A stretch of 64,000 nucleotides of DNA from the NCBI GenBank assembly GCA_000091205.1, contig AP006499.2; one strand, written 5' to 3'. The DNA comes from Cyanidioschyzon merolae. Taxonomy: Eukaryota. This document shows, piece by piece, positions 20,928 through 64,000 of this stretch (position 1 is its first letter; each line of letters begins with the position of its first letter). The notes beneath the pieces were generated by a model. The model was given only the letters and a program-made list of their open reading frames with translations, was not told the DNA's origin and ran no database searches. A program made the position numbers and the translations under genes.

Positions 20928-21144
20928 GCGAGTCCGCTGATTACCGGGTTTCAAGTCCCTAAAACACTACTGACGCGTCGATCGCTTGCCAGATATACGC
21001 ACCTGGAACGAACGAACGCAAGTGATCAGCCGCAATCATCCAGCGCATTCTGGATGAAACCTGGCGCCTGCACCTCGACAGCGACAACATGTTACACCGC
21101 GGGATATGTACACCGAAAGGCGCGCTCGGGTTCGCGGAAGCATC

Positions 21145-21900
21145 CTATCCGATTGCTCTTCGAGAGCGAGCCGGGTCCACGGATGGATACGTGGCCGTCC
21201 AGGTCCAGTCTGCGGCAGCATCGATTGCGGTTCCGTCGGTATCCAGTTTGTCTCGCGTTCCTGCCGTCATTCGATCCGCGATCTTGCAGCGGCTGGGTGC
21301 GTCTTCAAGCGATGGCGCTGGGGCCCGCCACGCCTGCTCGATCGCGTCACACACGCCTTCAGCCGTCGACTCGCACCGTACACCGCCATGATGCAGGAAA
21401 TGTGCATTGATCATCTTTAGGGATGCCGCCGCCCGCATCCACTCCACAATGGGTTCCCAGTAGCCGTCAACGTCAAATAGCACGATGGGTTTATTGTGGA
21501 ATCCGAGCTGACGCCATGACAAGACCTCGGCGAGCTCCTCGAGGGTCCCGAGGCCCCCGGGCAGCGCCACGAACGCATCTGAATCGAGGTAGAGGCCACG
21601 TTTGCGCTCCGCCATGTTTGTGACGGTGCGCACGGATGGCAGTTCCGGATGACAGTTATGGACACGAAAGATATCGAGTATGACGGCATCGACGCGACCA
21701 CCAACGGACAGCGCACCTTCGGTGAGTTTCCCCATAAGGCCAAAGCGGCCGCCACCGTTGCGCTGCGACCAACCGCGCTTCGCAATCGCGACACCTAGCT
21801 CGAATGCTGCCTGTTGGTAGTGTTCAGGGGCATTCGCAGACGACGACGCGTAACACGTTACAACGGGAGTGTCTCTGGGGGCGTCGGGGTTGCCCGCCAT
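21145..21900 (-). CDS. LOG-family protein (cytokinin riboside 5'-monophosphate phosphoribohydrolase / 'lysine decarboxylase-like')
   Basis: PGGxGTxxE motif (LPGGLGTLEELAEV) and GRVDAVILD...KPIVLFDVDGYWEP. The start is taken at the internal ATG (MAGNPDAP, cat at 21898-21900). The ORF-track start at 22107 lies upstream in the divergent intergenic region. Confidence 0.7.
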   Translation of the reverse strand: MAGNPDAPRDTPVVTCYASSSANAPEHYQQAAFELGVAIAKRGWSQRNGGGRFGLMGKLTEGALSVGGRVDAVILDIFRVHNCHPELPSVRTVTNMAERKRGLYLDSDAFVALPGGLGTLEELAEVLSWRQLGFHNKPIVLFDVDGYWEPIVEWMRAAASLKMINAHFLHHGGVRCESTAEGVCDAIEQAWRAPAPSLEDAPSRCKIADRMTAGTRDKLDTDGTAIDAAADWTWTATYPSVDPARSRRAIG

Positions 21901-22442
21901 GACGAAAAAAAAAGATCGCCAAGCGCGACCCTCTTTTGTTCCCGTAAAGCGAGCACTATCGACGCCGATACCTGTCGCTTGGACCCAGAACGGCTTTTCG
22001 AAAAGCCAGTGTATACATGCGGCCTTTCGGACCGTCCAAACACAGAAGCTTTCGCACTTGGAAGCGCGTTCAGGGATACAGGCGTACGGGAGTGTGCGCG
22101 CGCGCATCTTCGCCGGATACGCGCCTTTAACGATCCGTCATGAAAAACGGGCCAAAAGTGGTTGGTATAGTATAAAAAGAATATTTAGGGATGAAGTGGC
22201 CATAGAGCATGGATGACGGGTGTGTCGTTTGCGTGTGGCGCACGCGCGCATCGATCACGGAATGATCGCCATACCACCTCAATGCATAACTCGATCCATA
22301 TGCACGACTTGCTTTTCGCTGACTTGCAGACTCGGTGTGTCTCACCGGCACTCTCGAACAGAATAACACTTGCTTGAGGGTCACGCTTCTTCTGGTGTGG
22401 AGTTCGAGCTCCGTCATACGCGCCCTGGTCGAAGCAGTGTGA

Positions 22443-23772: not shown

Positions 23773-24318
23773 CTAAAGTTTGTTACCGATTTCCTTGTGG
23801 CGTCTGGTGGCCTCAATTTTCTCCTGTGGCGACATTTCATAGCCGTGCTTGCCGTTCGTGAAACCGCAAAGCTTCACGTGATAGCTTTTCGGCAACTCGC
23901 TCTCTGGCGTTGCTGGATCAGCGTACTGCTTGCTATGGATGGTGACAACCGCCTCCGCGCATTTCTTCATTTTCGCGAGCGCCATCTCGAGGCCCGTGCA
24001 AGCCATACTGCCGTCGCCGAGCCTGACCTCTTTTCGCTGGGTTGGCATCCCCAGCGACCGAACGAGGACGACGTTTTCGCCTTTGAGGAGGATCGTCCCT
24101 AGAGCAACCGTCCGCCGCTTATGCTTTGCAGTACTTCCCCACTGCTCCACGGTGTCGACCAGAACTAGATTGGTGTGTTCGTCGAAGCCGCGCAAGGTGC
24201 CTTCCAGAGAGTATCTGGTGTTTTCGAATAACCAGACCTCAACGCGGGCTTGTTGGCGCGCCAGCGTTGCTAACAACTGCTCTGGAACTATCCGTCTGTC
24301 CAGAGCGTCCTTCGGCAT
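23773..24318 (-). CDS. Sm-like (LSm) domain protein
   Basis: ATG confirmed. The N-terminal roughly 90 aa have an Sm fold signature (VEVWLFENTRYSLEGTLRGFDEHTNLVLVDTVEQ...LGTILLKGENVVLV). Confidence 0.5.
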   Translation of the reverse strand: MPKDALDRRIVPEQLLATLARQQARVEVWLFENTRYSLEGTLRGFDEHTNLVLVDTVEQWGSTAKHKRRTVALGTILLKGENVVLVRSLGMPTQRKEVRLGDGSMACTGLEMALAKMKKCAEAVVTIHSKQYADPATPESELPKSYHVKLCGFTNGKHGYEMSPQEKIEATRRHKEIGNKL

Positions 24319-25259
24319 CTATGTTCACCACTTAAGTTGGCTGCAGGCGTGCAACCAGGAGATTGTACCTGCTTTTCACGGTTTGCTCGGGAGCATATAA
24401 CAGCGCGAATGCCGGAGCGAACAACGTTACGTCAGTGCAGCAAACCCGTTTCGCAACAATATCGTGTACATGAATATCCACCCGCAGACGTCTCTCAGCC
24501 TTTTCTTACAGGTTTCTGGTATCGGTTTCAGTTTCTCCATATACACCCCGACGCTGTGAGGCTGCCCAACAAAGTTAGCTTGCCGCAGCGCTGCGTGCCT
24601 CGTATTCAGCACAAGCATCTCCTGATATTGATACCAGCGTTGAGGTCTCGGTTCATGGACTCCATGCGTTTGTTGCCGCTGGTTGATCTCACCAATGATA
24701 GGAGACCACGAACTCGTGTACGCTGTGCCATTGGGTGCTCTGTCAGCTCTTCGTGCTGATTTGTCGACGAAATGCTCCGCTGGCCTCGCTCCAACTCAAC
24801 GTCCTAGGGTGTATATTCCAGCTCGTCCCTTAGATTTTTCGAAAATGAACGCACTTGTTTATAGCCTGAGATGACGACCTTCCCGCATCGAGCAGCACAT
24901 GCGGAATAAAGACCAAATGTGCCCCGGTTGGTCACCATGTGCTGAACGCTTCATCAATTCGCCCGGTGGAGCGGTCGTGACGATTCAGGACGCAAAACTC
25001 TCCTTCTATGGGGATGAAACACAGTTGAGAAGAAGGAATGAAACCAGCTCTACCCGTCGATAGAATTGGCAAGCGCTCGAACTGAAGCAGAACGGCTAAA
25101 TACCACTATGTCCAATAGAAGGACTTCACCAGGCGTTTGGGACAAGTCTTCAATGACTCGACAAAAAGAGGGCGCTGCTGCATGAGTGTTCTCTTCAGCG
25201 GAACTGAGGCAGCCAAATGAATCCACCGCAGCTAGAACAGATGATGATGTCGACGTTCT

Positions 25260-26338: not shown

Positions 26339-28225
26339 CTAACGATTCAGAGTGGCAGTGTTGACAGCAGGCACGCGCCGCTGACGCACAGCTCGAGGAT
26401 CGCTTCGATTCGAGACCACGGCGACAATACGTGACCATTTCAGCGCACCGAATGCGACTTCTCCGGCACTGGCGTGCAGCTCAACTAGGCGTCGTGCAAC
26501 GCGCATCTTAGCTTCCAGGACCTCGAGAGAAGCGTCCGTCGGGTCGCAGAGCCATTCCACAAAGTCCGCCATACTAGCCAACGCGACAACTCCGATTCTC
26601 GACAGACTTAGCGCAGCGAATACCGCCGCAGCAGCGAGCCGCTCTTCTTCCGAAGGATGCCGTGCACAGTCCAGGACAATGGGCAGTGCATTCGTGAACG
26701 CCTTGACGGCATCCGCATCCCTGATCGCATCAGTGAACAGATGCAGCACCCTTTGCTGCCGAAATTCGAGGTCGGATTCGGAGGCTCCGTACCCTGAGAC
26801 GGCTGCTGATGAAAGCGGCTCGTCGAGACCTGCCAGGAACACACTCAAAGCACGCAAGGAGGCCACTCGAATATCGCACACGCTCGCCGTATGAATGAAA
26901 CGAAGCGTTAGTTTCAAGGTGTCAACGTCCGCAAGCAGCACGTCCATGCCGCGTTCACAGAGCCCCAGAGCGCCTACCGCGGAGATCAGATGCACCAGCA
27001 GCGTCGTCCGACGAACTTGATCAAGTTGTACGGACCAGTGTGCTGTCTCAGTCTCGCCATCTACCACGTGAACCAAGAGAAAGCGCCCAAGAATCTCTAC
27101 GAGATTGGCGTCCATCCAAGCGTGGAAGGCGCAACGGCTGGACCCGGCACTGGTGCGCACGAACCTCAGAATCCCACACATCCAAATAAACCAGCGTTCC
27201 GCCAAGTCGCTCGAGGCAGGCTCGTCTGGCGCCAACAAATGGGCAAGGTGTTGGCGTAGCAGCACATCGAATACCGAAATTTGGTCGAGCAACTCGGCTG
27301 CTATTGCACTGCGTTGCATAAAAGCCCCAAGCACATCCAGCAAGTTCAAGCGGAGTAGCAAGTCCTCATCCAAACGAACAGGAGCTGCGATTTTGGCTAC
27401 AAGCACGGTTGGCAACAGCCGACGTGCGGCAATCTCTGCAACAGACGAGTAGTCGCAGATCTCAAGCAGCAAGCTCAAGGCTCGGATATGCGCAACCGCA
27501 CCCGCTGCACCCGAGAGCATCTCCTGTACGAGGATTTGCGCGCCTCGTGCTTCGCTGAAGAGCACAACTGCGCCGCGGAACGGCTTCAGCTGTACCAGGT
27601 TCTTCAGGATTTTTTCACAAAGTCCCGCAGCTTCGGTGGATGGATCATCACGGAAGCTCAGCAGCACCAGTGACAGGATATCGCTGGCGTGCTGTGCAGT
27701 TGTGCTGGGAGCGTTCACTTCTGGACCTGGCGCTTGTGCGGCCTCTATCTCCGGACGAAGCTCGTTCGTACTTTCAAAACGTTCGATAATGGTGTCTGCA
27801 ACTTGCTGACAAAACGCTTCAGGCAAGTCATTCCGTTCAAGAAGGAGACAAAGCAGACGAAGCGCAGCTGTGCGTACCAGCGGGTACCGGCTGCTCAGAC
27901 CGAGCTGGATGAGCTGGAGCACCTGCTCTATAGGTACGAGGTGACGCACTCGGGCACTTGTTGCAGAAAGCTTGACCAGTTTCTCCATTGTTTTCGTTAA
28001 TACCCGGATGGAATCAAATATGTTGTCAGAAGGTACCGCGTCGCTGTCTGAAGCCTCGAGCGACGCCCGCACCGCGTACTCCTCCAGTGTCCAGCCCAGC
28101 AGCGGTAACGGCAAACGCTCCAGCAAGTCCAGTGCCGCACACTCCGACAGTGCTCCAGCGTCTACATATTCCCTCACTGTATCCAATACTTTATCGGGAG
28201 TCCAGTCATTGTGGTGAGCGTTCAT
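26339..28225 (-). CDS. Armadillo/HEAT-type helical repeat protein (hypothetical)
   Basis: 628-aa ATG-initiated ORF (cat at 28223-28225). Leu-rich amphipathic repeats throughout, with no catalytic motifs. Confidence 0.45.
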   Translation of the reverse strand: MNAHHNDWTPDKVLDTVREYVDAGALSECAALDLLERLPLPLLGWTLEEYAVRASLEASDSDAVPSDNIFDSIRVLTKTMEKLVKLSATSARVRHLVPIEQVLQLIQLGLSSRYPLVRTAALRLLCLLLERNDLPEAFCQQVADTIIERFESTNELRPEIEAAQAPGPEVNAPSTTAQHASDILSLVLLSFRDDPSTEAAGLCEKILKNLVQLKPFRGAVVLFSEARGAQILVQEMLSGAAGAVAHIRALSLLLEICDYSSVAEIAARRLLPTVLVAKIAAPVRLDEDLLLRLNLLDVLGAFMQRSAIAAELLDQISVFDVLLRQHLAHLLAPDEPASSDLAERWFIWMCGILRFVRTSAGSSRCAFHAWMDANLVEILGRFLLVHVVDGETETAHWSVQLDQVRRTTLLVHLISAVGALGLCERGMDVLLADVDTLKLTLRFIHTASVCDIRVASLRALSVFLAGLDEPLSSAAVSGYGASESDLEFRQQRVLHLFTDAIRDADAVKAFTNALPIVLDCARHPSEEERLAAAAVFAALSLSRIGVVALASMADFVEWLCDPTDASLEVLEAKMRVARRLVELHASAGEVAFGALKWSRIVAVVSNRSDPRAVRQRRVPAVNTATLNR

Positions 28226-28471
28226 TCAGCAACAGGTTATCACGCTTTGAGATAGACATATCCAGAAGCAATCTCCTGATCGGCGGCGGGGCGCAGGTCA
28301 GCCGCTGCGCGTGCACGCGCACCTGGCAGATCCGGCGGGCACGAGACACGACGCTCTGGTCGCTCCTGAGGGGAACAGTGATCCTGATCATTGGCGTGCT
28401 ATTCTACTGTAAAAGTTGTATTCGCGTTGAGGTCGTAGCAAAGTATAGGTTTTCTGTTCCATCCTATTCCG

Positions 28472-30876
28472 ACCCTCAATTGAGTATATTCAAGTGTTTT
28501 TTCGAAGTATATAACAGAAGCGTTCAAAGAGCGTTCGTTTTCAAAAAAAATTAAAAGGAAAGTCATGGAAATGGAAGTGGAGGATCCCGGAGGGCCGATA
28601 TCGCCGGCTGTCGGAAAAGAAGGATAAACATGGCGGAGCAAAGAGGAACAGGAATTGATGAAGAATCAAAAGGGGGCGAGGTTCTAGGTCGAAGGCGGCA
28701 AGAAAGGCAACTGTACAACGAGATAGTGGTGAAAGCCTGTGTTCTTAAATATATCAAGGATCCGTAGAAGGAAAAGTTGCGGGACGCCATCAAAAACCGT
28801 CTCGAGTCGTACTCCATGAGTATTATAAAGGCTTCTTCAGGACCGACGCATTTGGTGAGGGAGATGTATCGCTACGTGACGAACATGGAAACGGTCGGGA
28901 TTCCGGACGAGTTTTTCGATAACACATTTTTTCGTCACTTGATGCTTGGCACAGGGGAAGAGCGGAAGGATATAAGAGCCAGTGCATGCCCTTCACGAAC
29001 AACATCCCTTTTAGAGGTTCGAGGGTAATCGAAACAAGGGGGCAGGGGTATTTACGACTATGGGGCGATGAAGTACATCACGAACCTGAAGAACCATTTG
29101 ACAACGAACCTCGAACGTTTCATGATACGCGCCGTGTTTGCACTCTACCGGGGCCTGTCTCGCAAAGGAATATGGGCGATTATCAATGGCATCATGAACG
29201 ATCGAAACTATGGAAATGAGGTCGAATTCGTTGACAAGAAGGAGTCAAACCAGAGCACGAATGAGGATTCTGTAATCCGTGCGGCTATTAAAGAGCATCG
29301 TGCGGTCTTGGGGTTGGCGAATCCAGCAGAAAAGATATCAGCGTTGAAAAAAGATAGGGAAAGATACGATCGCCTCATTCTGCGCTATTCTGTGTTTCTG
29401 GACCGAGAGCTCGAACGCAAAGCGGAGATGAAGCTGAGTGAAGAGACAAAGGAAGAGTGGGAGAGACGGAAGGCTTTCCGAATGGGTAAGCGCTTCGACG
29501 TGGTTCCAATGTGCAAGATCAAGTCACATTTTATGACTATCGACTCCGGCCTCTTTTACGGCATCATGAAGGAGATCTGTCCGGAGTTCGATGTAAGGAA
29601 GACAGAGTTCCCCGGTGAAAACCGTGAGACGTACTGGAAGAATATCTTCGATTTCAAACGTCTCAAAGTCAGCAAACAAAAGGTATTCACTGGGTTGATC
29701 GAAACCGATGGAGTAGCCACGTGTGTACAATATCGGCGCTTGAAGAAAAATCGTCCAGTTCCGCCCTCGGCTTCGCCCGTTACGAAGCATGAAGATGAGA
29801 AGGAGTCGGATCCAGCGATGCAGGAGGTAGAGGATAACGACCTAGTCGTTGACGCGGAGAAGCATGAAGATGAGACGGATGCGGATCCTGCGATGCAGAA
29901 AGTGCAGGGTAACGACTTTGTCGTTGGCGCGGATCCCGGAAACACAATATCATCACCATCGCAGTACCCAAGCATGCGAAAGATGATATCAACGGCAAAT
30001 TATTCCAGAGCGACATGCGTCGGTTGAGGTCCTCTAGAGCAAGATAATATCGAAAAAAGTCGGGAATCATGAATGCAAGAAAGAAAATCGAGACGTAGAA
30101 TGCAGGAATGAAAGGGCACCTGGAAGCTTTGAGCGAGGTGACGAGCCGCAGAGCGGACTTTCAAGCTTTTCCGGAATTCATGGAAGTTCGTGTTGCTCAT
30201 TGGGAGGCGCTGTGGAAAGAACATACAAAGCCTCGGTGAGCTCGATTGCGTATGAACCTATACGGTGGGAGGCAGCGGGCGTTTGCCAACTTTTTCAATC
30301 ATTTGAGCGCCCTCTAAGAGATTGAAAGTCAGAGGCCCGTAGTAGCTTATGCAACAGGGCGCTGAGCGCCCAAAAAAGTACGTACACCAGCTCCAACGAC
30401 GAGAGCGTACAAAGAGTGTGCAAGGCGTTACGTAACGATACCGATAGATGAGTTCCGAACAGCGTATGTGCATTATGAACTGGGGTGCGTACTTCAGACG
30501 GTCGAAATGGAAAAATGCCAACGGAGTCCTGAAGACATAGCAAAGTACGGGCCGCTGACCGAAGAGCAAATGGGAAGGAGAGCGAAAGTTCGAGGACCAC
30601 TTTCATCAGTAAGTACAACCAATGATGGCAAGACGCGTATGGAGTTTGTGAATCGTGACTTTAACGCCGCTATCAATATACGGAAGTGCGCGGTGCTGGA
30701 GAGAAGGCGTCCACAGCTGACACGAGAGCGCTTTGTTGGACAATTACTCAAAGCCGAACTATATGAGAAACAGTTGGAAGCAGTAGTAGGTGGCCGTTCC
30801 AAAAAGACCGGGAGACTTCTGCGCATCAGTTGTAGACGTTTCGTCTAGGGCGGGTTTCTCGCCACTACTGTGCACC
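28472..30876 (+). mobile_element. Fanzor/TnpB-like (IS200/IS605 OMEGA-family) element, copy 1, heavily decayed
   Basis: Homologous end-to-end to 60867-63189 at roughly 80 % nt identity. It encodes the Fanzor N-terminal region, RuvC-I (VVGADPG), a zinc-finger-like segment (YVHYELGCVLQTVEMEKC) and RuvC-III (MEFVNRDFNAAINIRKCAV). Left-end motif: GTGTTTTTTCGAAGTATATAACAGAAGCGTTC. Right-end block: GCCACTACTGTGCAC. Confidence 0.65.
28565..30848 (+). pseudogene. Fanzor (eukaryotic TnpB-like RNA-guided nuclease) pseudogene, copy 1
   Basis: The reading frame is split into pieces at 28565-, 28777-29028, 29068-30027 and 30468-30848. Relative to copy 2 it has a roughly 110-bp internal deletion, a 69-nt tandem duplication ([12 protein letters not shown]...), a 1-nt deletion just after GADPG, an in-frame TAG (ctctagag vs ctcgagag) and a TGA in the last segment. 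Confidence 0.6.
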
Positions 30877-31202
30877 GTTGGCAGGAACGCTTTTCTTTGG
30901 AAAGGCGTTTGATGGTGTACACGGATGCGTGCATGCGTGCGTGCATGCGTGCGCAACATCCCGCTCACAGTGAATACGCACAAAGCATTGTCGTTGTTCG
31001 CCGTGCAGTGCCGAGAATGCTGCACCGCTGCAACAGCAGTGCGCGTCTCTTGGCACTGCTAAGCGCGCTTCGCCTGCATGTCGCCCATACACCGTCGTTA
31101 CGGACCCAGCGACTGCATCATGGGCGCTGCATTAGTGGCAAACCATCGGTGTCTGGTTCACCGCCAGGAAAGCAGAGTCACCCGCGCCTGCATGGGTGGC
31201 GT

Positions 31203-44494: not shown

Positions 44495-45035
44495 ACGAAG
44501 GAAAAGCTATGGAAGAATTTGAGGTGTTCTCGGTGAAGCTGGTGCTTTCGGATGACCAATGCATGAGTGTGTGTGTGTTTGTTTTCGTAGAATGGTGCTC
44601 GTATGAGGGCAAGAGCAGCACCATGAACACGTTCCAGATGCAAGGCACGAACTCGGATCGCATGGACAATGCATCTGTATACTGCAGCATGATCATCTCG
44701 AAGTGGTAATCGAACGATGTTGACACGGTTGCAAACGCTAGAACGGCAACATCTCCTTTGCTTTTCTCGACGCACGTGCAGCGCCATGATGCCCATTGCG
44801 TATCTGACACCGCTTCCTCTGCTGCTTACTGTGCATCGTTTTCCGCACCATATGGACGACGCCGCTCGTAAGGCATTCGCGAGCGCCCGCGTAACTTGGA
44901 CGAGGGAATGCGTCCACCAAGCGCAAGCGCTCCCTACGACTCTGTTTAAATGCCGTTGCTTGGAATAACCGCACATGCCGACGAGGAATCGCGGCACTAG
45001 AGGCCCGTGTCGAAGCACGGTCTCGGTTTGCGTGC

Positions 45036-45985
45036 TCAATAGAAACGCAACAAACGTGCCTTTCTTTTTTTGTGCTGGCTTTCCAGAACGCGATCAGGTC
45101 TGTGCCGCTGTTCCCGGGAAAGCGCACATCCCATCTTTTCCTGGTATGAGAAACAGGAGTTTCGTGGTGATGCGAAACGCAACAAACGTGCCTTTCTTTT
45201 TTTGTGCTGGCTTTCCAGAACGCGATCAGGTCTGTGCCGCTGTTCCCGGGAAAGCACACATCCCATCTTTTCCTGGTATGAGAAACAAGAGTTTCGTGGT
45301 GATGCGAAACGCAACAAACGTGCCTTTCTTTTTTTGTGCTGGCTTTCCAGAACGCGATCAGGTCTGTGCCGCTGTTCCCGGGAAAGCACACATCCCATCT
45401 TTTCCTGGTATGAGAAACAGGAGTTTCGTGGTGATGCGAAACGCAACGAACATGCCTTTCTTTTTTTGTGCTGGCTTTCCAGAACGCGATCAGGTCTGTG
45501 CCGCTGTGCCCGGGAAAGCGCACATCCCATCGTTTCCTGGTATGAGAAACAGGAGTTTCGTGGTGATGCGAAACGCAACAAACATGCCTTTCTTTTTTCG
45601 CACTGGCTTTCCAGAACGCGATCAGGTCTGTGCCGCTGTTCCCGGGAAAGCACACATCCCATCGTTTCCTGGTATGAGAAACAGGAGTTTCGTGGTGATG
45701 CGAAACGCAACAAACATGCCTTTCTTTTTTTTGTGCTGGCTTTCCAGAACGCGATCAGGTCTGTGCAGCTGTTCCCGGGAAAGCGCACATCCCATCGTTT
45801 CCTGGTATGAGAAACAGGAGTTTCGTGGTGATGCGAAACGCAACAAACGTGCCTTTCTTTTTTCGCACTGGCTTTCCAGAACGCGATCAGGTCTGTGCCG
45901 CTGTTCCCGGGAAAGCACACATCCCATCTTTTCCTGGTATGAGAAACAGGAGTTTCGTGGTGATGCGAAACGCAACGGCCGCAAT
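45036..45985. repeat. Tandem array, 132-bp unit x about 7.2 copies
   Basis: The CCCGGG landmark recurs at 45113, 45245, 45377, 45509, 45641, 45774 and 45906. Units are about 90-95 % identical and each contains the palindrome TTCCCGGGAA. It is intergenic, between uL4 and the 987-aa gene. Confidence 0.9.
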
Positions 45986-47660
45986 ACGGCCTCTACCTCC
46001 ACCCGAACCAGATGAGAACGGGGTATTGCATTGCTCGCGCTGCTCCTGCCTTGAGATTTCTTACCGCCCGCTTCGTGGATATACAGCCTCTACATTTGCA
46101 ATCCATGACAAAGCACTTTCGTATACATATGGAGTTGTAGGAGTCTCGGTCATGTTTTCGGAGTGCTTGTGTCGATCCGTTGCCGCTCGGGATTCGTCGT
46201 GCCATCGGATTGGAGCGGATTCACGACGACCTCGAACACGACTTTGTAAAATCGTCGATGACGTCATCAGAGTCGGACGTGAAAAAATCCACGCTTTTCG
46301 ATTCCCTCAGTGCTCTATACGCAAACGACACACGCTTCAACTCGATCGTTCTGATTCAGGGCAATTCGTGGGCACGGCAATTCGTTCTGATGAATCGATG
46401 AGGAAAGAAAACTCGATGTCGTGCTTTGACGACTGGGTCACGAGCATATACCGAATGTTCATTGGGCTTCTCACGTCAATTCATCGATATCGTTCGAAAG
46501 AGAAATCCTCTTCTCTTTGTGGTCAACGATGAAGCGGCATTCTACAGCAGCAGCGTGAGACGTCTCAGAAGCTGCTCCCCGAGGCTTCCGTATCCTCTGT
46601 TTGCCTGGGTACGGGTCTTGGACGCAAACCAGAGTCACTACAGCGATCGATAGCTTTGGAGCGTGCGTCACCGCCTGGAACGACGAGCGTGCAGATGGGA
46701 CGAAATGTCTCGACTAGTTCCGCAACCTGGGTTTTCCATCGGCTGCCTGTTTCATCGATGAGCTAAATCGCTTTCTCCAATTCCGCAATCGAAACGAATC
46801 GCGCGCACTTGCATATGCAGCAGACAGCAAAGTCGCGGCGAGCATCGCTCAGAAGAAGCCCGTGATCTTCGGGTACAGCAGCGAGCGCGGAAACAGAACA
46901 GGGCATCCATCGGTGCCGTCAGCAACTTCCAAGGACGCGTGTGTCGAGCCGTGAAGCACGGGGTCACGCGCCTCAAGTCGGTGCTCGGAGAACAAAGTGT
47001 TGCGGGTGTGTATAGGAGCATCTGAGCGGCATCAAGCGTTACCGCTGCGAAGCGCGCTCAGAGACTCTAGACATAGATGATGAAATGAACAAGCGACATG
47101 CAGACTGCGACTTTTGCCTGTATATGTATCTTATCGTGAGCAACAACCGATAACTGCGAGCATGGGGCTTTCACGTTGCCATCAACGTCCTTCCACTGCT
47201 GGCAATGTAGCTGGAGGAACGGGAAAGACTTTCCTGTATTACGCCGGAGATAAAAGAACGGAAAGAAGCAAATCGACGAAAAACCGCGGAAAACCCTGTT
47301 CTAATTCCAGTCGCAGGAGACCCGAAACATAGTCCGTACGCCCAAGTTAGTCGACTTGACCCGTTCCATTTTATGCGAATATGGGTGTACACCAGCCTGA
47401 GCGCCCCAGAACAACAACAACAACAACGGCTTTTCTGCTGCGCCGATTTTCCAAAAGCATCCGGACTCTGTGGAACGATTTTTCGTGGAAACATGCGGAT
47501 ACCAGCATGAGCGAACATGCATGGACGTGCTGCTCACGGACTTGTACACACTGTGCTCGTCCTCGCTTCCCAGGATTCGCGTCACGATGCTTCCGCCTGT
47601 CACTGGCTGCGTAGTGCCCCACGTTACGCCCTGACGCTTACACGTCGCAGCTGCAGCAGG

Positions 47661-52679: not shown

Positions 52680-54210
52680 CAAGGTTGTTGCGAAACGCTC
52701 ACTGGCCGGGCGCTTCCTGTTCAGGCGGTTCAATGGTGAGCGGGGCAGTCGTCGCCAGGGCAGTGGCGATAGATTTCGAACCCCAATGCAAACGCATAGG
52801 GCGTGTATCTCAGTGAAATGCTATAGAAACCTGTATATTCCAAAGAAAAATCTGCGAAGCGTCGGAGTGATAAAGTGCATGCCGGGGACAAGCGCTGATC
52901 CGACGTACCCGTGGCATGCTCGGAATCGAGTCACGACTTGGTGATACCTTCCTGCGCACATCAGCGCACTTTTGCTTCACGGACGTACGCGAAGTACTGA
53001 TGAACGATGGAACAACATATGTTTCTACCGATTGCGCAGGAAAAATCGTAAACGATATATATATGGCGCTGCTATATTCATGGATTGCTGGACGGATCGT
53101 ACCAGTGCCTCGTTCGCGCGAGAATCGCATGACTTTACACCTCGCGACTGATTTTTACATCGCCAGACTTTCTGTTTTCAGCACCATGTCCATAAAGAGT
53201 ACTACACGAGTACCTCGCGAGCCCGCTCGACACAAGGCTGTTGGACGCTCCCGATGCACGAGACATTTCCGGATGTTGGTTGAGGCATACAGGTCTCCGT
53301 GCAGAATGCCTCTGCCTATGTTTGCCTGCGGAATCGCATCATTGCAAGACGCTCATTTTCGATTGCCTCGCCAGTTGGCGTTCGATCAGCTTACCGTTCA
53401 CCATCTCGTGCATGCGACTATTCACTACGCTCTTCTTCTGTGCACGGTTCAGCGTACAGCCATGCTTGTGCAGCTTGCGTATCGTCCTGAATATATCGAT
53501 GGAAATTGTCCGGCATGGATTGGTGCACTCTTTGGACGCTCTCGTTGAATGAGCAGGTGCGCATCCAGTTTGACAAGTGCTGTATTGGATGCACGGAACG
53601 TTCAGGATAAGCATGCGAAGAAGCGTGCTTCACTCATCGAAGGACTTTCGAATACCTGATTTGAACAAGTAAGGCCGTTTCATCCAATTACCATGAAACA
53701 TATCAGTTCCTTTCACCTCTTTTTCCAACCCACAAGATGCATTCCTTTTGTTGAACACATCCCAGATAAACACCCAAAAAAGTCCTAATGGTCTAGGCGT
53801 TCTAGAATTCACCACCCTAGTTATACCGACAATCACCATTTGCGTGTCCGTGCATCTTCGACGAGTCGCTCGCGGTATCGACCGCCCCATCCGCACCGCA
53901 GTTGCGCTGCAGCGTGCAACAGCGCATGCGATCCTGCATCAGCAGCTAGCCGCGAACCTGCATGGCACGCGGCATCCACGCCGCCGAGTCTCCAAAGCGT
54001 ACCAGGAACACGAAATCCCAATCCCGAAACCCGAACGGTCTGGTACGAAGAAAGCATCAATGCAGCTCCGCATGTCCATACCCATCGCACACATGAAGAA
54101 GCACACCAGGTACTGGAATGTAGCCTCTAGCAGAGCATCCCGGTATTGGGTGATCGTTCCCGCCCACGTTATCCCGGGATCTCGCTTCAACGATGATTGT
54201 ACAAGCGAAT

Positions 54211-54515
54211 CGCCCTCTTTAGAGCCCCTAAAGGTGGACGCTGTACAGATCGTCCTCTCCAGCGCACATGAAGGCTGCCGCTGTACAGATCGCCCTCTTC
54301 AGAGCCCCTAAAGGTGGACGCTGTACAGATCGTCCTCTCCAGCGCACATGAAGGCTGCCGCTGTACAGATCGCCCTCTTCAGAGCCCCTAAAGGTGGACG
54401 CTGTACAGATCGTCCTCTCCAGCGCACATGAAGGCTGCCGCTGTATAGATCGTCCTCTTCAGAGCCCCTAAAGGTGGACGCTGTACAGATCGTCCTCTCC
54501 AGCGCACATGAAGGC
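54211..54515. repeat. Tandem repeat, 80-bp unit (two diverged 40-bp halves) x about 3.8 copies
   Basis: AGAGCCCCTAAAGGTGGACG recurs at 54221, 54301, 54381 and 54461. Each unit is CTGTACAGATCGTCCTCTCCAGCGCACATGAAGGCTGCCG + CTGTACAGATCGCCCTCTTCAGAGCCCCTAAAGGTGGACG. It lies about 100 bp upstream of the Pol-X ORF. Coordinates here may be off by 1. Confidence 0.85.
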
Positions 54516-54626
54516 GGACATCGACGCGCATGCACCGAGGCGATCTCTCGCCAAATATCTCTGAGGGAAAACGAGAGGGCTCTCTACTGTACCTCAGGTG
54601 CGCGTGCCGCTACCAAGTCCGATTGA

Positions 54627-57994: not shown

Positions 57995-58861
57995 TCAGGG
58001 AATGAATACCGTTTTCGTAAGCCCGCCATACACTTTAATCAGCATATCGCCCGCCAGGTTCAGGATAAACACTGCGCCAACGGTGCGGATGCCTCGCGGC
58101 ACGAGTCCCGAAAAAAAGAAGCGGATACTTTGTTTCTCCTGGTACACTTTTCGAGCGGTTTGGAAGAAATTTCTATAACGCTTCCCGACATCCGGTGTTT
58201 CATTTGGATCGCCCGGGTGGGGAATATCTGCCTGCTGGATGGTCTTGATGGTATCCGCCCACTGCGAAGCGGACGCCGCAACAACCCCAGCGATGATGCC
58301 GCTGGATGCGAATGCGACCACGCCTGGTCCACCTGTTCGCGCCTCAATTTCGGCCCGAAGAACTGGAGCAAGCCCTAAATAACCCCCCGTGTAGATACCC
58401 TCTCGAATAGCGGTGGCGAGAAACCCCTTGTAGAGTCTGAACGGCCCCTGCCGAGCAACGTTCACGAACTCTGAAACGAGGGTTGTCCCGCGTTTTTGTT
58501 GCTGAATCATGACGAGTTCCGCGGGCGAACTTACCGTTGCGGAGAGCGCACCGCCAAAGCACGCCGCTGCAATCTTTTCCCCATTGGAGAGACCAGTGTC
58601 GGAGCCAGCGTCCGCGTGCCGCGCAGCAAAGAAGTTGCGACCAATGCCGGTCCCCGCAAACTGGATACCCGTGATCGGGGCAATGCTCGCTGCATTCACG
58701 AAGAGCCCTCTGTACCAGTGGCTTGGGCGAAAGACTATTTCAGCGCTCCGTTGAATTTGGTTCTTGAAATAAATTGTCGGTTGTTGAATGCAGAGTTCGA
58801 TGACACCGGCCAAGGCGCCGATGCCAACGAGCTCACCCGGTCGTAGTTTTCGTTCCTGCAT
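57995..58861 (-). CDS. Divergent mitochondrial-carrier-family-like protein
   Basis: 288 aa made of three roughly 95-aa repeats, each with a hydrophobic helix followed by a degenerate Px[DE]xx[KR]-like stretch (PTIYFKNQIQ, PAELVMIQQQKRG, WADTIKTIQQ). Gly-rich helices are present. The carrier signatures are only partly conserved. Confidence 0.5.
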   Translation of the reverse strand: MQERKLRPGELVGIGALAGVIELCIQQPTIYFKNQIQRSAEIVFRPSHWYRGLFVNAASIAPITGIQFAGTGIGRNFFAARHADAGSDTGLSNGEKIAAACFGGALSATVSSPAELVMIQQQKRGTTLVSEFVNVARQGPFRLYKGFLATAIREGIYTGGYLGLAPVLRAEIEARTGGPGVVAFASSGIIAGVVAASASQWADTIKTIQQADIPHPGDPNETPDVGKRYRNFFQTARKVYQEKQSIRFFFSGLVPRGIRTVGAVFILNLAGDMLIKVYGGLTKTVFIP

Positions 58862-60866
58862 GCTCTACCAAAGCCGCAGCCTCCACCAATAACGTACAGA
58901 ATGAAAACGTAGTCCCAGAAACGTTCGAGCGCCTCTGGAACCCCGACTTGTCCACAAGGCGCTGCTCGTGCTCGTGGCGTGCACCCCAGTGGTGCAGCGT
59001 CCGGGCACCACGCAGGCAACGCTACGTGTCCATGCACGCATCGATCGCACGTATCGATCGATTGATCGATCGATGCGCAGCGGCGGCTAGAGGCGCTCAG
59101 CGGCCGCCGCTGCCGCCTGTGCATCCGGTCCGGTGCCGGGGTGAGCACGACGCGCCTGCTCGAGCGCGAAGCGGCAGCGGCTCTTCGCATGCAGTGCCTG
59201 TTCGTTGTAGCGAGGTTTGTTCTGGGTCGGCGTTGGGTCATTCGACGAAATGCTCTCCGACGCACGGGCGCTGGTCGTTGGCGATACATGAATACGAGCT
59301 GGATGGAGAAAGGAATAGCGGCATCGGGCTGAGCGCTGGGAAGCGGCGCGTCGATGCGTGCGTGCGCTGCTGCGCTCTTTTCCCTGATCTGCGCGGGCGA
59401 TGTGTGTCTCTGGCGTTTCCGCATCGATGCAGCAGGGATCCGAATAGTGATCTGAGCGTCGCTTTCTCGGTTATCCTATGACTGCGAAAAAGTGTCGAGC
59501 GCGGAATTTGCGGTCGACTGCAGCATCGACGGAGCGGATACGACGCCCGCTCCCTGGCGACGTCGATTTGGGGCGCTGGCAACCGCGGTGGCCAGCGGGG
59601 CTGTTCACACCCAGCGGTATGCGAGCGCTGAGGTGTCGCGCAGAACGGTTGACCGTCTCCATGGCGACGCTACTGAGACACCATGCGCAATAGCCGGTGT
59701 GACATGAAGTGCCGGATGCGATCACGCGGCTTTGCTGGACGATTTCGGATGCTTCTCGTAATCGAGCGGCATGCTTTCCGAATCACTGAGAAAGCGCGCT
59801 TCCGGGGCTTCGAACACGCATCGCGCTCCGCTGATGCATCTGGAGAACCCGGCACTGTGGTCAGCTCGAGGTCGGAAAATGTGCTGCTCGGCTTCGCCGG
59901 CTGGGAAACGGAATCGCATCGACACGAAGTGTGAAGAAGACGCTGTCTGCGTTCTCTCGTTGCAAGACAGCTGAGCGTTGTGTTCAGCGGTGCCCTGGTG
60001 CCCAGCAGCGCAACCGCGTCCATCTATGCGACGTTTCACCAATGACAGCCACGTGCATGAGCACTCGCACCTGACACATCGTTAACGTTCTGAAAACAGC
60101 ACCGATGCGACCGCCCCCGTCTGCTTCTGGCCAAGGAGCGCTCCCGACGTACAGTTAAGGAGGTCGCGAACGGTGTGTGCGGCACGCGCCGGTTGCGTCA
60201 CACCGGTACGTTCCGAGCGAGCGGTTCCCCCACACGCAGCCGCAGAACGCTAAACCATCCTCTGGACCCCAAAACGCTGGTGCAAAGAGCCGCCCCCAGC
60301 CAAGTACCCTGTCTATGTGGAAGGCATTTCGCACTGGTGCATGCGCCTCGCCCACCTGTGCATCGCGTGGGCGCGCGGCGAGCATTGCGGCGAGCGCAAA
60401 TGCAGGATACCGGGAGATAATTGCAACATGGGCGACGCCCAGACGCAGCTTAACTGCCCCTAGTCCCAGAATACAATGCGTTGCGGACGATTTGCGCAGC
60501 TCACGTAGCAGTACCTGCCACTGCAGAGTCGAACGGGTGACGAGCCTGGCAGACTGCTCCGGCTCGCGGGACCTTTCGCGTGGAAGGAAAACTTTCTAGA
60601 ATACGAAAAGCTTTTCCCCTTTCAAAGTATATCACAGAAGGGGAAAGCAATACATATACATGCCGGTGAATCCAGAGTCTATGTGCGTTAATCTAAATAG
60701 CGCGCGCTAGATACGCGCATCACGAGATCTGGCTGGCACGAGATACGATGCGCATGTCGCCGTTGAAGAGAAAAGCGATTCCGATCAGAAGCGTGTTCTA
60801 CCGGAACAAGTTGGATTTCCGTTGGAGTTTTACAAAAGAGCAGTTTTTTCATTTCATTTGGTCTTC

Positions 60867-63189
60867 AACCCTCAAACAAGTCTAGTAAAGTGTTTTTTCG
60901 CAGTATATGACAGAAGCGTTCGAAGAGCGTTGTTTTTCAAAAAAACTAAAAAATGAAAGCTATGAAAAAGCAAGTCGACGATCCTGGAGGCTCAGTGTGG
61001 CTGGCTGCCAGAAAAAAAAAACAATAAACATTACCGAGTCCAGAAGAAAAGGAAGAGAAAAAGAACCGAAAGGGGGAGGCTCTACGTCGAAGGCCGCAAG
61101 AAAGACGACAGTACGACGAGATGGTGGTGAAAACCTTTCTTCTTGGACATACCAAGGATCCCTGCAGGGAAAAGTTGCGAGACGCTGTCGAAAAACGTGT
61201 CGACTCTTACTTCAGGAATATTGTGAAGGCGTCGTCAGGACTGATGCATTTGGCGAGGGAGATGTATCGCGACGTGACGCACATGGAAACGGTCAAGATT
61301 CCGGACAAGTTCTTCGACAAGACCTTTATTCGACACCTCATGCTTGGTACAGAGGAAGCGCGGAGGGAAAATGAGCGGGTGCACGTCCTCCACGGAAAAC
61401 ACTCCTTTTACAGCTTTAATGGTACTCGATACAAGGGTGACCGGGATATGTACGACTATGGGGCGATGAAGTACCTCACGAACCTGAAGAACCATCTGAT
61501 CGTGAACCTCGAACGTTTCATGATACGCGCCGTAGTTGCACTCTACCCGGACCTGTCTCGCCAAGGAATATGGGCGATTATCAATGGCATCACGAAAGAT
61601 CGCAGGCGTGAAGACGAGGTCGAATTTGTCGAGAAGAAGGAGTCAAACGAGAGCACGAATGAGGATTCTGTAATCCGTGCGGCTATGAAAGAGCATCGTG
61701 CGGTACTGGGGTTGGCGAATTCAGCAGAAAAGATATCAGCGTTGAAAAAAGATGAGGGAAGATCCTATCGCCTCATTCTGGGATATTTTGTGTTCCTGGA
61801 CCGAGAACTGGGACGCGAGGCAGAGATGAAACTGGGTGAGGAAAAAATGAAGCGTGGGAGAGACGGAAGGCTTTCCTAATGGGGAAGCGCTTCAACGGCG
61901 TTCCAATGTGCAACATCAGTTCACATTTTGTGACTATCGACTCCAGAATCCTTTACGGCATCATGTAGGAGATCAGTCCGGAGTTCAGTGTCAGCAGGGA
62001 GGAGTTCTCCGCTGAGAAGCGGGAGACGCACTGGAAGAACATCTTCAATTTCAAACTTCTCAAAGTCAGCAAACAAAAGGTATTCACTGGAATGATCGAA
62101 ACCGATGGAGTAGCCACGTGTGTACACTATCGGCGCTTGAAGGCAGATCGTCCAGTTCTGTGTTCAATATTGTCCGTAACGAAGCATGAAGATGAGAAGG
62201 AGGCGTATCCTGCGACGCAGAAAGTGCAGAATAACGACTTTGTCGTTGGCGCGGACCCCGGAACCACAAATATCGCAACCATCGCAGCACCCAAGCGTGC
62301 GGAAGATGGTACTGACGGCAACCTACGTCGGAAAGACGTGCGTCTTTTGAGGCTCTCGAGAGCAAGATACTATCGAGAATCGGGAATCATGAATGCAAGG
62401 AAGAAAATTGAGGCATGGAATGCAGGAATGAAAGAGCACCTGGAAGCCTTGAGTGAGATGACGAGCCGCGGAGCGGACTTTGAAGCTTTTCGGAAATTCA
62501 TGGAAGTTCGTGTTGCTCATTGGGATGCGCTGTGGGAAGAGTATACAAATCCCCGGTGCGCTCGTCTGCGAATGAATCTGTATTGTGGGAAGCGGCGCGC
62601 GTTCGCGAATTTTTTAATGAGTGCCTTGAAGGAGAATGAAAGTCAGGGCTCGTGGTAGCGTACGGAGCAGGGCGCCGGAGGATACAAAAAGGGTGTACAC
62701 CAGCTCCAACGGCAAGAACGTACATGGAGTGTGCACGGCGTTTTGTTACAATACCTGTAGATGAGTTTCGAACATCGTATACACACCATGAGCTGGGTTG
62801 TACACTTCAGAGAGTGGAGATGGAAAAGTGCCACCGGAGCCCTGAAGATATAAAAAAGTATGGACGGCTGACGGAAGAGCAAATGGAAAGGACGTCGAAA
62901 GTTCGTGGACTCCTTGCATTAGTAAGTACAACCAATGATGGAAAGAAGCGTATGGAGTTTGTGAATCGTGACTTTGATGCCGCTATCAATATCAGGAAAT
63001 GTGCGGTGATGGAGCATAGACCTCCAGAGTGGACAAGAGTGAATTTTGTTGGACAACCTCTCAAAGTCGAACTATATGAGAAAAAGTTGGAAGCAGTATT
63101 CGGTAGACTGTTCAAAAAAACTGGGAGGCATCTGCACGTCAGTTGGCGACGTCTCGTCCAAGGCGCGGTTGCCGCCACTACTGTACACG
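60867..63189 (+). mobile_element. Fanzor/TnpB-like (IS200/IS605 OMEGA-family) element, copy 2, less decayed
   Basis: Same left-end motif (GTGTTTTTTCGCAGTATATGACAGAAGCGTTC) and right-end block (GCCACTACTGTACAC) as copy 1. It encodes RuvC-I VVGADPGTTNIATIA, RuvC-II-region AFANFLMSALKE, the zinc-finger-like FRTSYTHHELGCTLQRVEMEKC, and RuvC-III MEFVNRDFDAAINIRKCAV. Confidence 0.7.
60953..63170 (+). pseudogene. Fanzor (eukaryotic TnpB-like) gene, copy 2, disrupted
   Basis: Coding potential of about 740 aa is spread over three frames: 60953/61121-61879, 61879-62658 and 62652-63170. There is a 1-nt deletion near 61850 (relative to copy 1), an in-frame TAG at about 61966 (AAG in copy 1), and a frame change at 62642-62670 that coincides with a GT...AG 29-nt segment. 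Copy 1's stop codon (TAG) is CAA here, so the ORF runs on to 63395. Confidence 0.6.
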
Positions 63190-63241
63190 CCCGACGTCGT
63201 TCGACTTTCGAGCGGCGTTTGGCCGGTGTCACCTCTAATCC

Positions 63242-64000
63242 ATGTCAGGAGTGGAACTCCCAGAAGCAGAGACGAGGTCAGTTCTTTCCGATGCGATTCA
63301 AGTGGCGGTTCGTGTTCGTCCTATTCTTCCGAAAGAAGCAGAGACTAGGGGTGCGGCTGAGACCTGGCGCGCTGTACCTCACGCAGGTCAAGTGATCCGC
63401 GTTGGCCGGCTTCCCACGGGTGCCGGAGGCACGACGACCTGCCCGACTGTCTTCTCGTATGATTTCGTGTTCGGTAAGGAGTCCACCAACGTAGAAGTCT
63501 ACGAAAAGGTGGCGAGGCCTCTGGTTGAAAGCGCTCTAGTTGGTTACAATGGCACCGTCTTTGCCTATGGGCAGACGTCTTCCGGGAAAACGCACACCAT
63601 GTGGGGCAGCGAGGCGGATCCCGGTGTCATGCGTCGGGCTGTACGTGACCTCTTCGAGCTTGCGCGCCGAACGCCTCAGCGAGAGTTCCTCATTCGGGTG
63701 TCTTACCTGGAGATCTACAACGAGACTATCAGAGATCTGCTGCATTCGAACCCAGCCGTGACCAATGTCCGGGTTCTTGAGGATAGCGATGGTCGCATCT
63801 GCACCGATGCGCGAGAGGAAATCGTTGTCACTGCTGAGCAAGTCTGTGAGTTGCTCAAGAATGGCGAGGCGAAGCGTATGACCGGAGCAACGGACATGAA
63901 TGAGCGAAGTTCTCGCTCGCACACGATCCTGACACTAGTGATTGAGAGCAGGGAGCGCGCTGCGGAAGACTCAACCTCTGGGGATGCCGAAGACTCGTCA
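63242..64000 (+). CDS. Kinesin motor domain protein (5' part; continues beyond the window)
   Basis: ATG at 63242. IQVAVRVRP..., the P-loop GYNGTVFAYGQTSSGKTHTMWG, and switch-I NERSSRSHTILTL are all present. There is no stop before the window end. Confidence 0.85.
   Translation, partial: MSGVELPEAETRSVLSDAIQVAVRVRPILPKEAETRGAAETWRAVPHAGQVIRVGRLPTGAGGTTTCPTVFSYDFVFGKESTNVEVYEKVARPLVESALVGYNGTVFAYGQTSSGKTHTMWGSEADPGVMRRAVRDLFELARRTPQREFLIRVSYLEIYNETIRDLLHSNPAVTNVRVLEDSDGRICTDAREEIVVTAEQVCELLKNGEAKRMTGATDMNERSSRSHTILTLVIESRERAAEDSTSGDAEDSS

Follow-up and report, generated by a model that had tools for sequence, protein, structure and literature searches.

The only kinesin of Cyanidioschyzon merolae assigned to family 7 (CENP-E), CMQ429C, has its start codon at most 22 nt downstream of the right end of a decayed transposon of the CMe-1A family, the remnant of an element carrying a Fanzor1 gene. 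Because this gap is too short to hold an independent promoter, the core promoter of the kinesin probably falls within the element's right end, as judged from the geometry of the locus, and would represent co-opted transposon sequence on which expression of the gene physically depends. The analyzed window, a 64-kb stretch of DNA, was assigned to chromosome 17 of C. merolae 10D by exact protein matches and contains four copies or remnants of the transposon family. The relevant features are the following:

28315–30909, plus strand: copy 1 of the family, short form, heavily decayed, TAG stop codon kept at 30846–30848
57995–58861, minus strand: mitochondrial carrier gene, divergent from the kinesin (exact match to BAM82264.1, “carnitine carrier Crc1p”; Pfam Mito_carr)
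58862–60406, no strand: non-element intergenic DNA on the carrier side, 1,545 bp, G+C-rich, no homology to other family copies
60407–63219, plus strand: copy 2, CMe-1A Fanzor1 element, pseudogene, 2,813 bp (blastn, 75–85% identity to copies L101, L102, L104, L098, L099, L105, and L107)
61966–61968, plus strand: in-frame TAG in the Fanzor coding region (three-frame translation)
62652–63395, plus strand: last open reading frame (ORF) fragment of the dead Fanzor gene (ORF list and frames)
63094–63183, plus strand: conserved structured region around and after the stop position (RNAalifold on 10 copies)
63159–63161, plus strand: CAA at the position of the ancestral stop codon of the family (TAG or TAA in 7 of 10 copies)
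63198–63219, plus strand: terminal hairpin (CGTTCGA-CTT-TCGAGCG) and GCGTT, the final block common to the family copies, used here as the element's right end
63220–63241, plus strand: 22-nt spacer separating the right end from the kinesin ATG, with an in-frame TAA at 63236–63238
63242–64000, plus strand: 5′ part of the CENP-E/kinesin-7 gene CMQ429C, 1,175 aa, running off the window (Pfam Kinesin, 7.8e-60; exact match to BAM82265.1)

The kinesin start codon (63242–63244) is fixed by the upstream in-frame stop codon, the 10D annotation, and the N-terminus of the ortholog from a related alga, which is of the same length; the two proteins are 69% identical over their full length. In a wild strain, translation from this ATG gives a protein identical to BAM82265.1, annotated as “centromere protein E.” The gene, one of five kinesin genes in C. 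merolae, has EST support (PMC1434745, Table 2) and is intact, conserved, and expressed. A protein search with the kinesin N-terminus returned distant kinesins only and not the gene itself. The long, intron-less ORFs of the region suggested a trypanosomatid origin with polycistronic units, which would make the notion of a promoter meaningless here, but this possibility was ruled out because the genes alternate between strands and the exact protein matches are to C. merolae.

The identification of the element as a Fanzor carrier, initially made from the sequence alone, is corroborated by its match to CMe-1A, a family of about 150 copies of about 3 kb that are about 80% identical to the consensus, lack terminal inverted repeats, and encode a TnpB-like protein as their sole gene (Bao & Jurka 2013, Mob DNA 4:12, PMC3627910). 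The organism is the same, the copies analyzed here are 75–85% identical with a full-length form of about 3,080 bp, the element ends showed no inverted repeat, and the long and short forms differ by a 5′ block, the TE-N2_CMe of that paper. On comparison with IS200/IS605-type transposons, the element showed neither a second ORF nor a transposase; a right-end hairpin is present and the left end is fuzzy. A literature search found no published reports on the family beyond that of Bao and Jurka, in which termini and target sites are undefined and the position relative to host genes is not mentioned. What is new is a defined right end, a conserved hairpin ending in GGCGTT, located just upstream of host start codons.

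The Fanzor protein contains the RuvC motifs GADPG, DEFRTS, and NRDFxAAINI (NRDFDAAINI in the translation of copy 2), and the RuvC triad (D484, E656, and D725) is invariant among relatives with identities as low as 32%. In Foldseek, matches with E ≤ 0.001 were limited to the three solved Fanzor structures (9cer, 2e-7; 8gkh, 3e-7; 9cf1, 2.5e-5), the next match having E = 0.14; the query was a low-confidence predicted model (pLDDT of 57, TM-scores of 0.2–0.28), and only the Foldseek ranking was used. Pfam yielded a single weak match (Cas12f1-like_TNB, E = 0.0012) and no family for the stitched protein of copy 2, and PDB sequence and profile searches with the Fanzor protein retrieved nothing relevant. 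The RuvC triad, the fold match to SpuFz, GtFz, and PpFz, and a conserved structured non-coding block that spans the stop codon and reaches the right end are all shared with the Fanzor/TnpB OMEGA systems (Saito et al. 2023, PMC10432273). In those systems, the guide corresponds to flanking DNA, which at copy 2 would, by analogy, be the kinesin leader and its ATG. The case differs from OMEGA systems in that copy 2 is a dead gene known here from its sequence alone, and in that the known right-end transcript serves the element, supply of a promoter to a host gene not having been described.

The position of the right end is central to the argument. Comparison of copies 1 and 2 had placed it at about 63189, leaving a gap of about 50 bp before the kinesin. 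The end of the homology between these two copies was reproduced (blastn, about 80.5% identity, ending at 63188 in copy 2 and at 30875 in copy 1), but it underestimates the extent of the element because only two copies were compared and the terminus of copy 1 is decayed. Homology to eight other family copies extends to 63203–63219, and the terminal block of the family, CGTTCGACTTTCGAACGGCGTT, matches the last 22 nt of copy 2 with one mismatch (0 matches expected by chance). Compensatory changes were found in four of the seven stem pairs of the terminal hairpin. A loosely shared tail, G.TGGTG, at 63220–63228 (TGGCCGGTG) may also belong to the element, which would reduce the gap to about 13 nt. 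The proposal that the kinesin promoter or 5′ UTR lies within the element, or was supplied by it, is accordingly stronger with a gap of at most 22 nt than with one of about 50.

Upstream of the terminal hairpin, the conserved structured region is closed by a long-range stem (63094–63106 pairing with 63172–63183) that encloses smaller hairpins. In the alignment, 89% of the cells are paired, compared with 38–56% when the structure is slid, and nine pairs show compensatory changes, compared with 3.5 ± 1.4 in shuffles; the single-sequence fold is unexceptional (z = -0.65), and an Rfam search gave no relevant family. From the alignment, this putative structure resembles an omega-RNA scaffold. Within the element, the ATG closest to the kinesin is at 63076, so that 163 nt before the kinesin ATG are AUG-free, and the right-end leader is likewise AUG-free in 8 of 10 copies. 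No core-promoter motif was recognized in the right end.

The element had also been thought to occupy essentially the whole divergent promoter region between the carrier and kinesin genes. It does fill most of it (2,813 of 4,380 intergenic bp), but the 1,545 bp on the carrier side do not belong to the element and are compositionally distinct (G+C content of 0.61, compared with 0.46–0.50 in the element). This carrier-side DNA probably holds the carrier promoter together with the displaced ancestral promoter of the kinesin. Copy 2 lacks the first ~265 bp of the full-length form; at its left end, no sharp boundary was found and no flanking target motif was recognized.

In the related alga (L095), the carrier and kinesin genes are also divergent, but their ATGs are 1,287 bp apart, and no Fanzor was detected between them by tblastn. 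The orthologous site is empty and its spacing differs from the 4,380 bp in 10D; the same spacing at an empty site would have told against the promoter proposal, and it was not seen. The intergenic DNA of the two algae is unalignable, only the coding parts aligning at ~75% identity, so the exact empty site was not reconstructed, and parsimony is the basis for both the precise point of insertion and the polarity (insertion in one lineage as against loss in the other). In Cyanidium caldarium, the kinesin side of the locus is not syntenic, and a scan of metagenomes for the kinesin recovered the same species only, always with the insertion, and no intermediate relatives. The insertion is carried by L011/L016, L015, and L017, which are 97–99% identical. 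Over the final 162 nt of the element together with the spacer, 10D and L011 do not differ, compared with 3.5% divergence in the body of the element and 1.9% in the intergenic DNA to its left, and no SNP was found from 63132 to 63241 among four strains. The right end and spacer may therefore be under constraint, a reading of sequence divergence over very few sites (about three to five differences expected, none seen).

The Fanzor gene itself is dead. Matches to copy 2 in tblastn run through frames 2, 1, and 3, with stops, which places two frameshifts at about 61860 and about 62650, in addition to the nonsense codon and the lost stop; no intact ORF remains. The decay of copy 1 is worse, and both copies are relics rather than active members of the family. 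The difference at the stop position between the copies, noted in the sequence-only reading, is real: the TAG of copy 1 corresponds to CAA in copy 2, and across the family a sense codon is found at this position only in copy 2, L098, and L104. The opposite polarity, with copy 1 having gained its TAG, was suggested by two relatives with glutamine at this position but was ruled out by the 10-copy alignment. As previously claimed, the frame stays open to 63395: the last ORF fragment, and only this one, passes the lost stop and the right end and then overlaps 154 nt of the kinesin coding sequence in a different frame. Any significance of this run-on ORF is unsupported: the gene was already broken upstream, which makes the overlap a by-product. 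It is very improbable that translation of the Fanzor fragment continues over the start of the kinesin, as a regulatory overlap or to form a fusion tail. L098 and L104 have lost the stop likewise, but such losses are spread over decayed copies, the kinesin is read in another frame where the two overlap, and with a transcription start site (TSS) downstream of 63076 there would be no in-frame AUG to begin the ORF.

We propose that a CMe-1A copy inserted in the orientation of the kinesin at most 22 nt upstream of the CMQ429C start codon, most probably into the ancestral 5′ leader of the gene. On parsimony, this would have happened after the split from the GCA_041825655.1 lineage and before the present-day C. 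merolae strains diverged, and would have displaced the ancestral shared promoter region by about 2.8 kb. Decay of the Fanzor gene would have followed, the ORF entering the kinesin being a meaningless by-product. Because the kinesin gene is intact and conserved and is expressed, transcription of it would start in, or be positioned by, the last 100–200 nt of the element, that is, its structured, omega-RNA-type right end. In active Fanzor/TnpB elements, the omega RNA is encoded at the transposon right end and transcribed outward, and we infer that such outward transcription (of omega RNA or as read-out) was co-opted, with the TSS located in the right end.

The main competing account, to which we give a low probability, is read-through. 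Transcription would start from the 5′ promoter of the element or from the displaced ancestral promoter (58862–60406), and the 2–3 kb of element in the leader would either be kept or be removed at the structured right end when the RNA is processed. In favor of this account, the element lies on the strand of the kinesin, its right end shows no identified terminator or poly(A) signal, and 9 of 12 family copies are co-oriented with the downstream gene, an orientation bias that alone is not significant (P = 0.07). In bacteria, processing of the tnpB transcript can release omega RNAs, and by analogy, omega-RNA-type processing would provide a natural cleavage point near the right end. Unless the leader were removed in this way, the many upstream AUGs and short ORFs before 63076 should block scanning ribosomes. 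Furthermore, the pseudogene body looks unconstrained, because its divergence between strains exceeds that of the neighboring DNA. Still less probable is a very short leader, with transcription starting inside the 22-nt spacer, little upstream requirement, and the element as a tolerated neighbor. The last 12–22 nt before the ATG are probably host-derived, the kinesin leader of the relative likewise ends in TCC before the ATG, and four host genes tolerate a right end 19–58 nt from their ATG. Even so, the region from -40 to -1 that positions polymerase II would still fall inside the right end, which makes this account a variant of the core promoter in the element rather than an alternative to it.

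By itself, a transposon relic at a promoter is ordinary: such relics commonly supply promoters, and this family has been described since 2013. The locus resembles known transposon-derived promoters (LTR or MITE exaptation and transposons that prefer gene 5′ ends) in three respects: transposon DNA sits where the core promoter of an expressed host gene that looks essential should be, a relative has an empty orthologous site, and the insertion is fixed across strains. It differs in that the donor is a Fanzor-carrying element whose end next to the gene is the one that encodes the guide RNA in active systems, and in that several genes share the arrangement, in a eukaryotic genome that is among the most compact. 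C. merolae shows efficient homologous recombination, which makes these loci a route to the first defined core promoter in this organism and allows a test of Fanzor preference for gene 5′ ends. A 2025 paper states that TSS or TATA information is available for none of the endogenous promoters of C. merolae (PMC12770821).

Among 12 family copies, all taken from metagenome contigs, the right end lies within 150 nt upstream of the ATG of a same-strand host gene in seven, compared with a chance expectation of about 8% per copy (binomial, 1e-5). The distances from the right end to the ATG are as follows:

L107 ORF: +19 (start codon unconfirmed)
Kinesin: +23
CMD066C: +39
SMC1: +58
Sm E: about +124
COQ6: +131
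CMD063C: +144

A broader reading, which we offer tentatively, is that CMe-1A elements are aimed at, or selectively kept at, gene 5′ ends, the guide-RNA-encoding right end turned towards the start codon, and that outward transcription from this end acts as the promoter of several host genes. Essential chromosome-segregation genes, those for the CENP-E kinesin and SMC1, might then be among the genes served, a suggestion that we regard as no less speculative. If true, this would make CMe-1A in effect a set of mobile promoters within a minimal eukaryotic genome. The similar G/T-rich sequences that follow the right ends could possibly reflect guide-directed choice of the insertion site. The 5.9-kb interval between CMD066C and CMD063C is made up of two elements arranged back to back, each with its right end towards the neighboring gene.

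The two Fanzor elements and the host genes flanking the second are placed in the window as follows:

28315..30909, plus strand: Fanzor copy 1
57995-58861, minus strand: carrier gene BAM82264.1, 'carnitine carrier Crc1p' (protein match to the 10D annotation)
60407..63219, plus strand: Fanzor copy 2
starting at 63242, plus strand: kinesin gene BAM82265.1, 'centromere protein E', 1175 aa, CMQ429C (protein match)

A sequence-only reading had put the right end of copy 2, the terminus facing the kinesin, ~50 bp from the start codon, with homology between the two copies ending at ~63189. For that pair, the boundary is correct: in a blastn search of copy 2 against the window, 60713-63188 matches 28315-30875 (~80.5% identity), and ACTGT[A/G]CAC is the last sequence before the pairwise alignment breaks off. 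However, the comparison stopped at 63188 because the terminus of copy 1 has decayed. Against eight other independent copies (one found in both L098 and L100, two in L102, and one each in contigs L099, L101, L104, L105, and L107), homology of copy 2 extends from 60407 to 63203-63219. At its right end, the family shares a conserved block, ...GCCACTACTGTACAC-(8-12 nt)-CGTTCGACTTTCGAACGGCGTT; copy 2 carries the final 22 nt of this block, apart from one mismatch, at 63198-63219. Most copies then continue into a loosely shared G.TGGTG tail, which may lengthen the element by ~9 nt. By this alignment, the right end of copy 2 is 13-22 nt from the kinesin ATG. The full-length family form (~3080 bp; L101, 4926-8005) begins ~265 bp before the first match of copy 2, which is thus 5'-truncated, so that 58862-60406 (1545 bp, GC 0.61) is not element. 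Copy 2 accordingly does not fill essentially the whole divergent region, as had been proposed, but 64% of the 4380-bp carrier-kinesin interval.

Ten ORFs of the window exactly match annotated 10D proteins, all on the 1,232,258-bp chromosome with CMQ locus tags. The genes lack introns and alternate strands, so each is expected to own a promoter. The kinesin ATG lies at 63242-63244, as first read, with an in-frame TAA one codon before it, and is confirmed by the equal length of the kinesin N-terminus in a more distant relative, GCA_041825655.1. The ORF is intact, the protein is identical between strains and conserved in this relative, and ESTs exist; CMQ429C is described as a single-exon gene with EST support and is the only one of the five C. 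merolae kinesins placed in family 7 (PMC1434745 Table 2).

The insertion is also present, with an identical junction, in three wild-strain contigs (L017 among them) of 97-99% identity to 10D. The comparison with an orthologous locus lacking the insertion, proposed in the sequence-only reading, is provided by GCA_041825655.1 (carrier protein 90%, kinesin 69%, and coding DNA ~75% identical to 10D): the same divergent pair is present, with ATGs only 1287 bp apart, and no Fanzor was found at this locus. No alignment of its intergenic DNA to that of 10D was obtained, so the insertion point is bracketed rather than resolved base by base. The 1545 bp left of the element are similar in length to the full 1287 bp of the relative's interval, which agrees with insertion directly beside the kinesin ATG. 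In Cyanidium caldarium, the carrier gene and the kinesin are not neighbors.

The element is correctly called a Fanzor and belongs to a known family: the window copies match the published description of CMe-1A, a ~3-kb element without terminal inverted repeats, its ends undetermined in that paper, present in C. merolae in ~150 copies, each ~80% identical to the consensus (Bao & Jurka 2013, PMC3627910). The stitched translation of copy 2 contains the RuvC motifs GADPG, DEFRTS, and NRDFDAAINI. A protein search recovered 50 relatives, of which hot-spring metagenomes supplied almost all, and a further three that are distant (32-41% identity); all retain the catalytic Asp, Glu, and Asp. Pfam and PDB sequence searches with the element protein were nearly blank. 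The AlphaFold model of one relative, P0047, is poor (pLDDT 57); in a Foldseek search of the PDB, its only significant matches were the three solved Fanzor structures (GtFz, 2e-7; SpuFz, 3e-7; PpFz, 2.5e-5), followed by Cas12i (E = 0.14).

Judged from their reading frames, both copies are dead: copy 2 has two frameshifts (~61860 and ~62650) and a TAG at 61966-61968, copy 1 has many more coding defects, and the wild-strain contigs carry the same broken ORF pieces. As first read, TAG at 30846-30848 of copy 1 aligns with CAA at 63159-63161 of copy 2, and the ORF 62652..63395 is open, overlapping the kinesin coding sequence out of frame. Loss of the stop by copy 2 is borne out by the 10 aligned copies (TAG in five, TAA in two, and CAA, CAG, and TGG in one each); because seven hold a stop there, the ancestral Fanzor gene ended at this position, leaving ~58 nt to the right end. 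Two relatives considered by themselves would have suggested the reverse, a gain of TAG by copy 1. The run-on frame, to which significance had been attached, has no evident meaning, the gene being already broken. The coding region also contains a ~75-78 bp unit (encoding roughly KHEDEKEADPATQKVQDNDLVVD; window 62175-62253 and, in copy 1, 29784-29947) in variable tandem number, with one unit in copy 2, two in copy 1, and three to five in others (L098, L099, L100); the count differs between two strains at one locus (L098 versus L100). Further, far more decayed Fanzor remnants lie at 24430-24908 and 53212-53611, both on the minus strand (33-47% aa identity to the family).

The region ~63094-63219 spans the stop codon, and its post-stop part is as conserved as the coding sequence. 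For the 10 copies, RNAalifold predicts a 12-bp long-range stem (63094-63106 with 63172-63183), inner hairpins, and a terminal 7-bp hairpin. In the predicted pairs, 89% of cells are paired, versus 38-56% with partners slid, and nine pairs, four of them in the terminal hairpin, show compensatory change, versus 3.5 ± 1.4 in shuffles (0/500 reach the observed value). Single-sequence folding gives nothing exceptional. The structure predicted from the 10 copies is of the kind expected of an omega-RNA scaffold or a transposition hairpin; in Fanzor/TnpB systems, omega RNA is encoded at the right end of the transposon (Saito et al. 2023, PMC10432273). In the 5' arm of the long-range stem, 10D and the wild-strain contig L016 have four derived substitutions in common (63102, 63106, 63108, and 63131); at these sites, wild strains L015 and L017 retain the consensus bases of the family. 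L017 (669-766) carries a 49-bp tandem duplication of window 63172-63220, precisely the block that terminates the right end (CCGCCACTACTGTACAC...GGCGTTT). The duplication stops at the inferred element terminus and has short GCGKTTKG repeats at both borders; this suggests replication slippage, though it may be an assembly artefact.

The earlier claim that the kinesin has no room for an independent promoter holds: because at most 22 nt of non-element DNA precede the ATG, the sequence that positions RNA polymerase II has to be within the right end, unless transcription comes in from at least 2.8 kb upstream. We infer that the kinesin promoter is located in the right end; no C. merolae gene has a known TSS (PMC12770821). 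A transcript from far upstream would have a leader full of upstream AUGs. By contrast, no ATG occurs in the final 143 nt of the element or in the spacer (63079-63241), and 8 of the 10 copies are likewise free of ATG there. Strain conservation is suggestive of constraint at the right end, but only suggestive, because just 3-5 differences were expected: 10D and the wild-strain contig L011 show none across the element's last 162 nt and the spacer, versus 3.5% divergence in the element body and 1.9% in the left intergenic DNA. Across four strains, there is no SNP at 63132-63241, the sequence being identical downstream of 63131 to the kinesin ATG.

We then determined how far the GGCGTT terminus lies from the next gene's first ATG in 12 copies, a small sample from metagenome contigs that includes the two degenerate window remnants, with starts checked against the 10D annotation where possible.

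Distance from CMe-1A right ends to the next start codon (nt)
L107, 895-aa ORF (putative start): +19
copy 2, CENP-E kinesin: +23
L102 minus-strand copy, CMD066C: +39
L105, SMC1: +58
window remnant 24430-24908 (-), same-strand Sm E (ATG at 24318): ~+124
L101, COQ6: +131
L102 plus-strand copy, CMD063C: +144
L098, Rad3-like helicase: +435
L104, PheRS-beta: +659

The remaining three copies face a gene's 3' end. By a calculation on the gene map of the window, an intergenic insertion at random would fall within 60 nt of a same-strand ATG in ~3% of cases and within 150 nt in ~8%; the observed counts are 4/12 (P = 4e-4) and 7/12 (P = 1e-5), respectively. In L102 (1705-7577), two copies arranged back to back make up all 5.9 kb separating the divergent CMD066C and CMD063C; their left ends are ~100 bp apart, and their right ends adjoin the genes, 39 and 144 nt from the start codons. 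Given this recurrence, the kinesin case is not a one-off. Either CMe-1A prefers gene 5' ends, or the ability of the right end to drive the neighbor leads to retention of copies at such sites. A transposon in promoter position is already known as a general phenomenon; a defined right end at most 22 nt from the start codon of an essential-looking gene, and the recurrence of this arrangement across the family, appear to be new.

Immediately upstream of the copy abutting SMC1 there is a reverse-transcriptase (RVT_1) ORF (L105, 814-2710), so a different mobile element adjoins that copy. In the window, the ATG of CMQ418C (26339-28225, minus strand) is only ~89 bp from the 5' end of copy 1 (28225-28315), so its upstream region is largely occupied by the left end of a Fanzor. 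For several genes within 19761-22107 and 26339-28225, other chromosomes hold paralogs of at least 90% identity (CMQ418C/CMM108C; CMQ413C and its neighbor/BAM79860 and BAM79861), which points to segmental duplications. Two tandem arrays are unrelated to the Fanzor finding: eight copies of a 132-bp unit at 44896-46120 and seven 40-bp units at 54169-54555, just upstream of a DNA polymerase beta-like gene.
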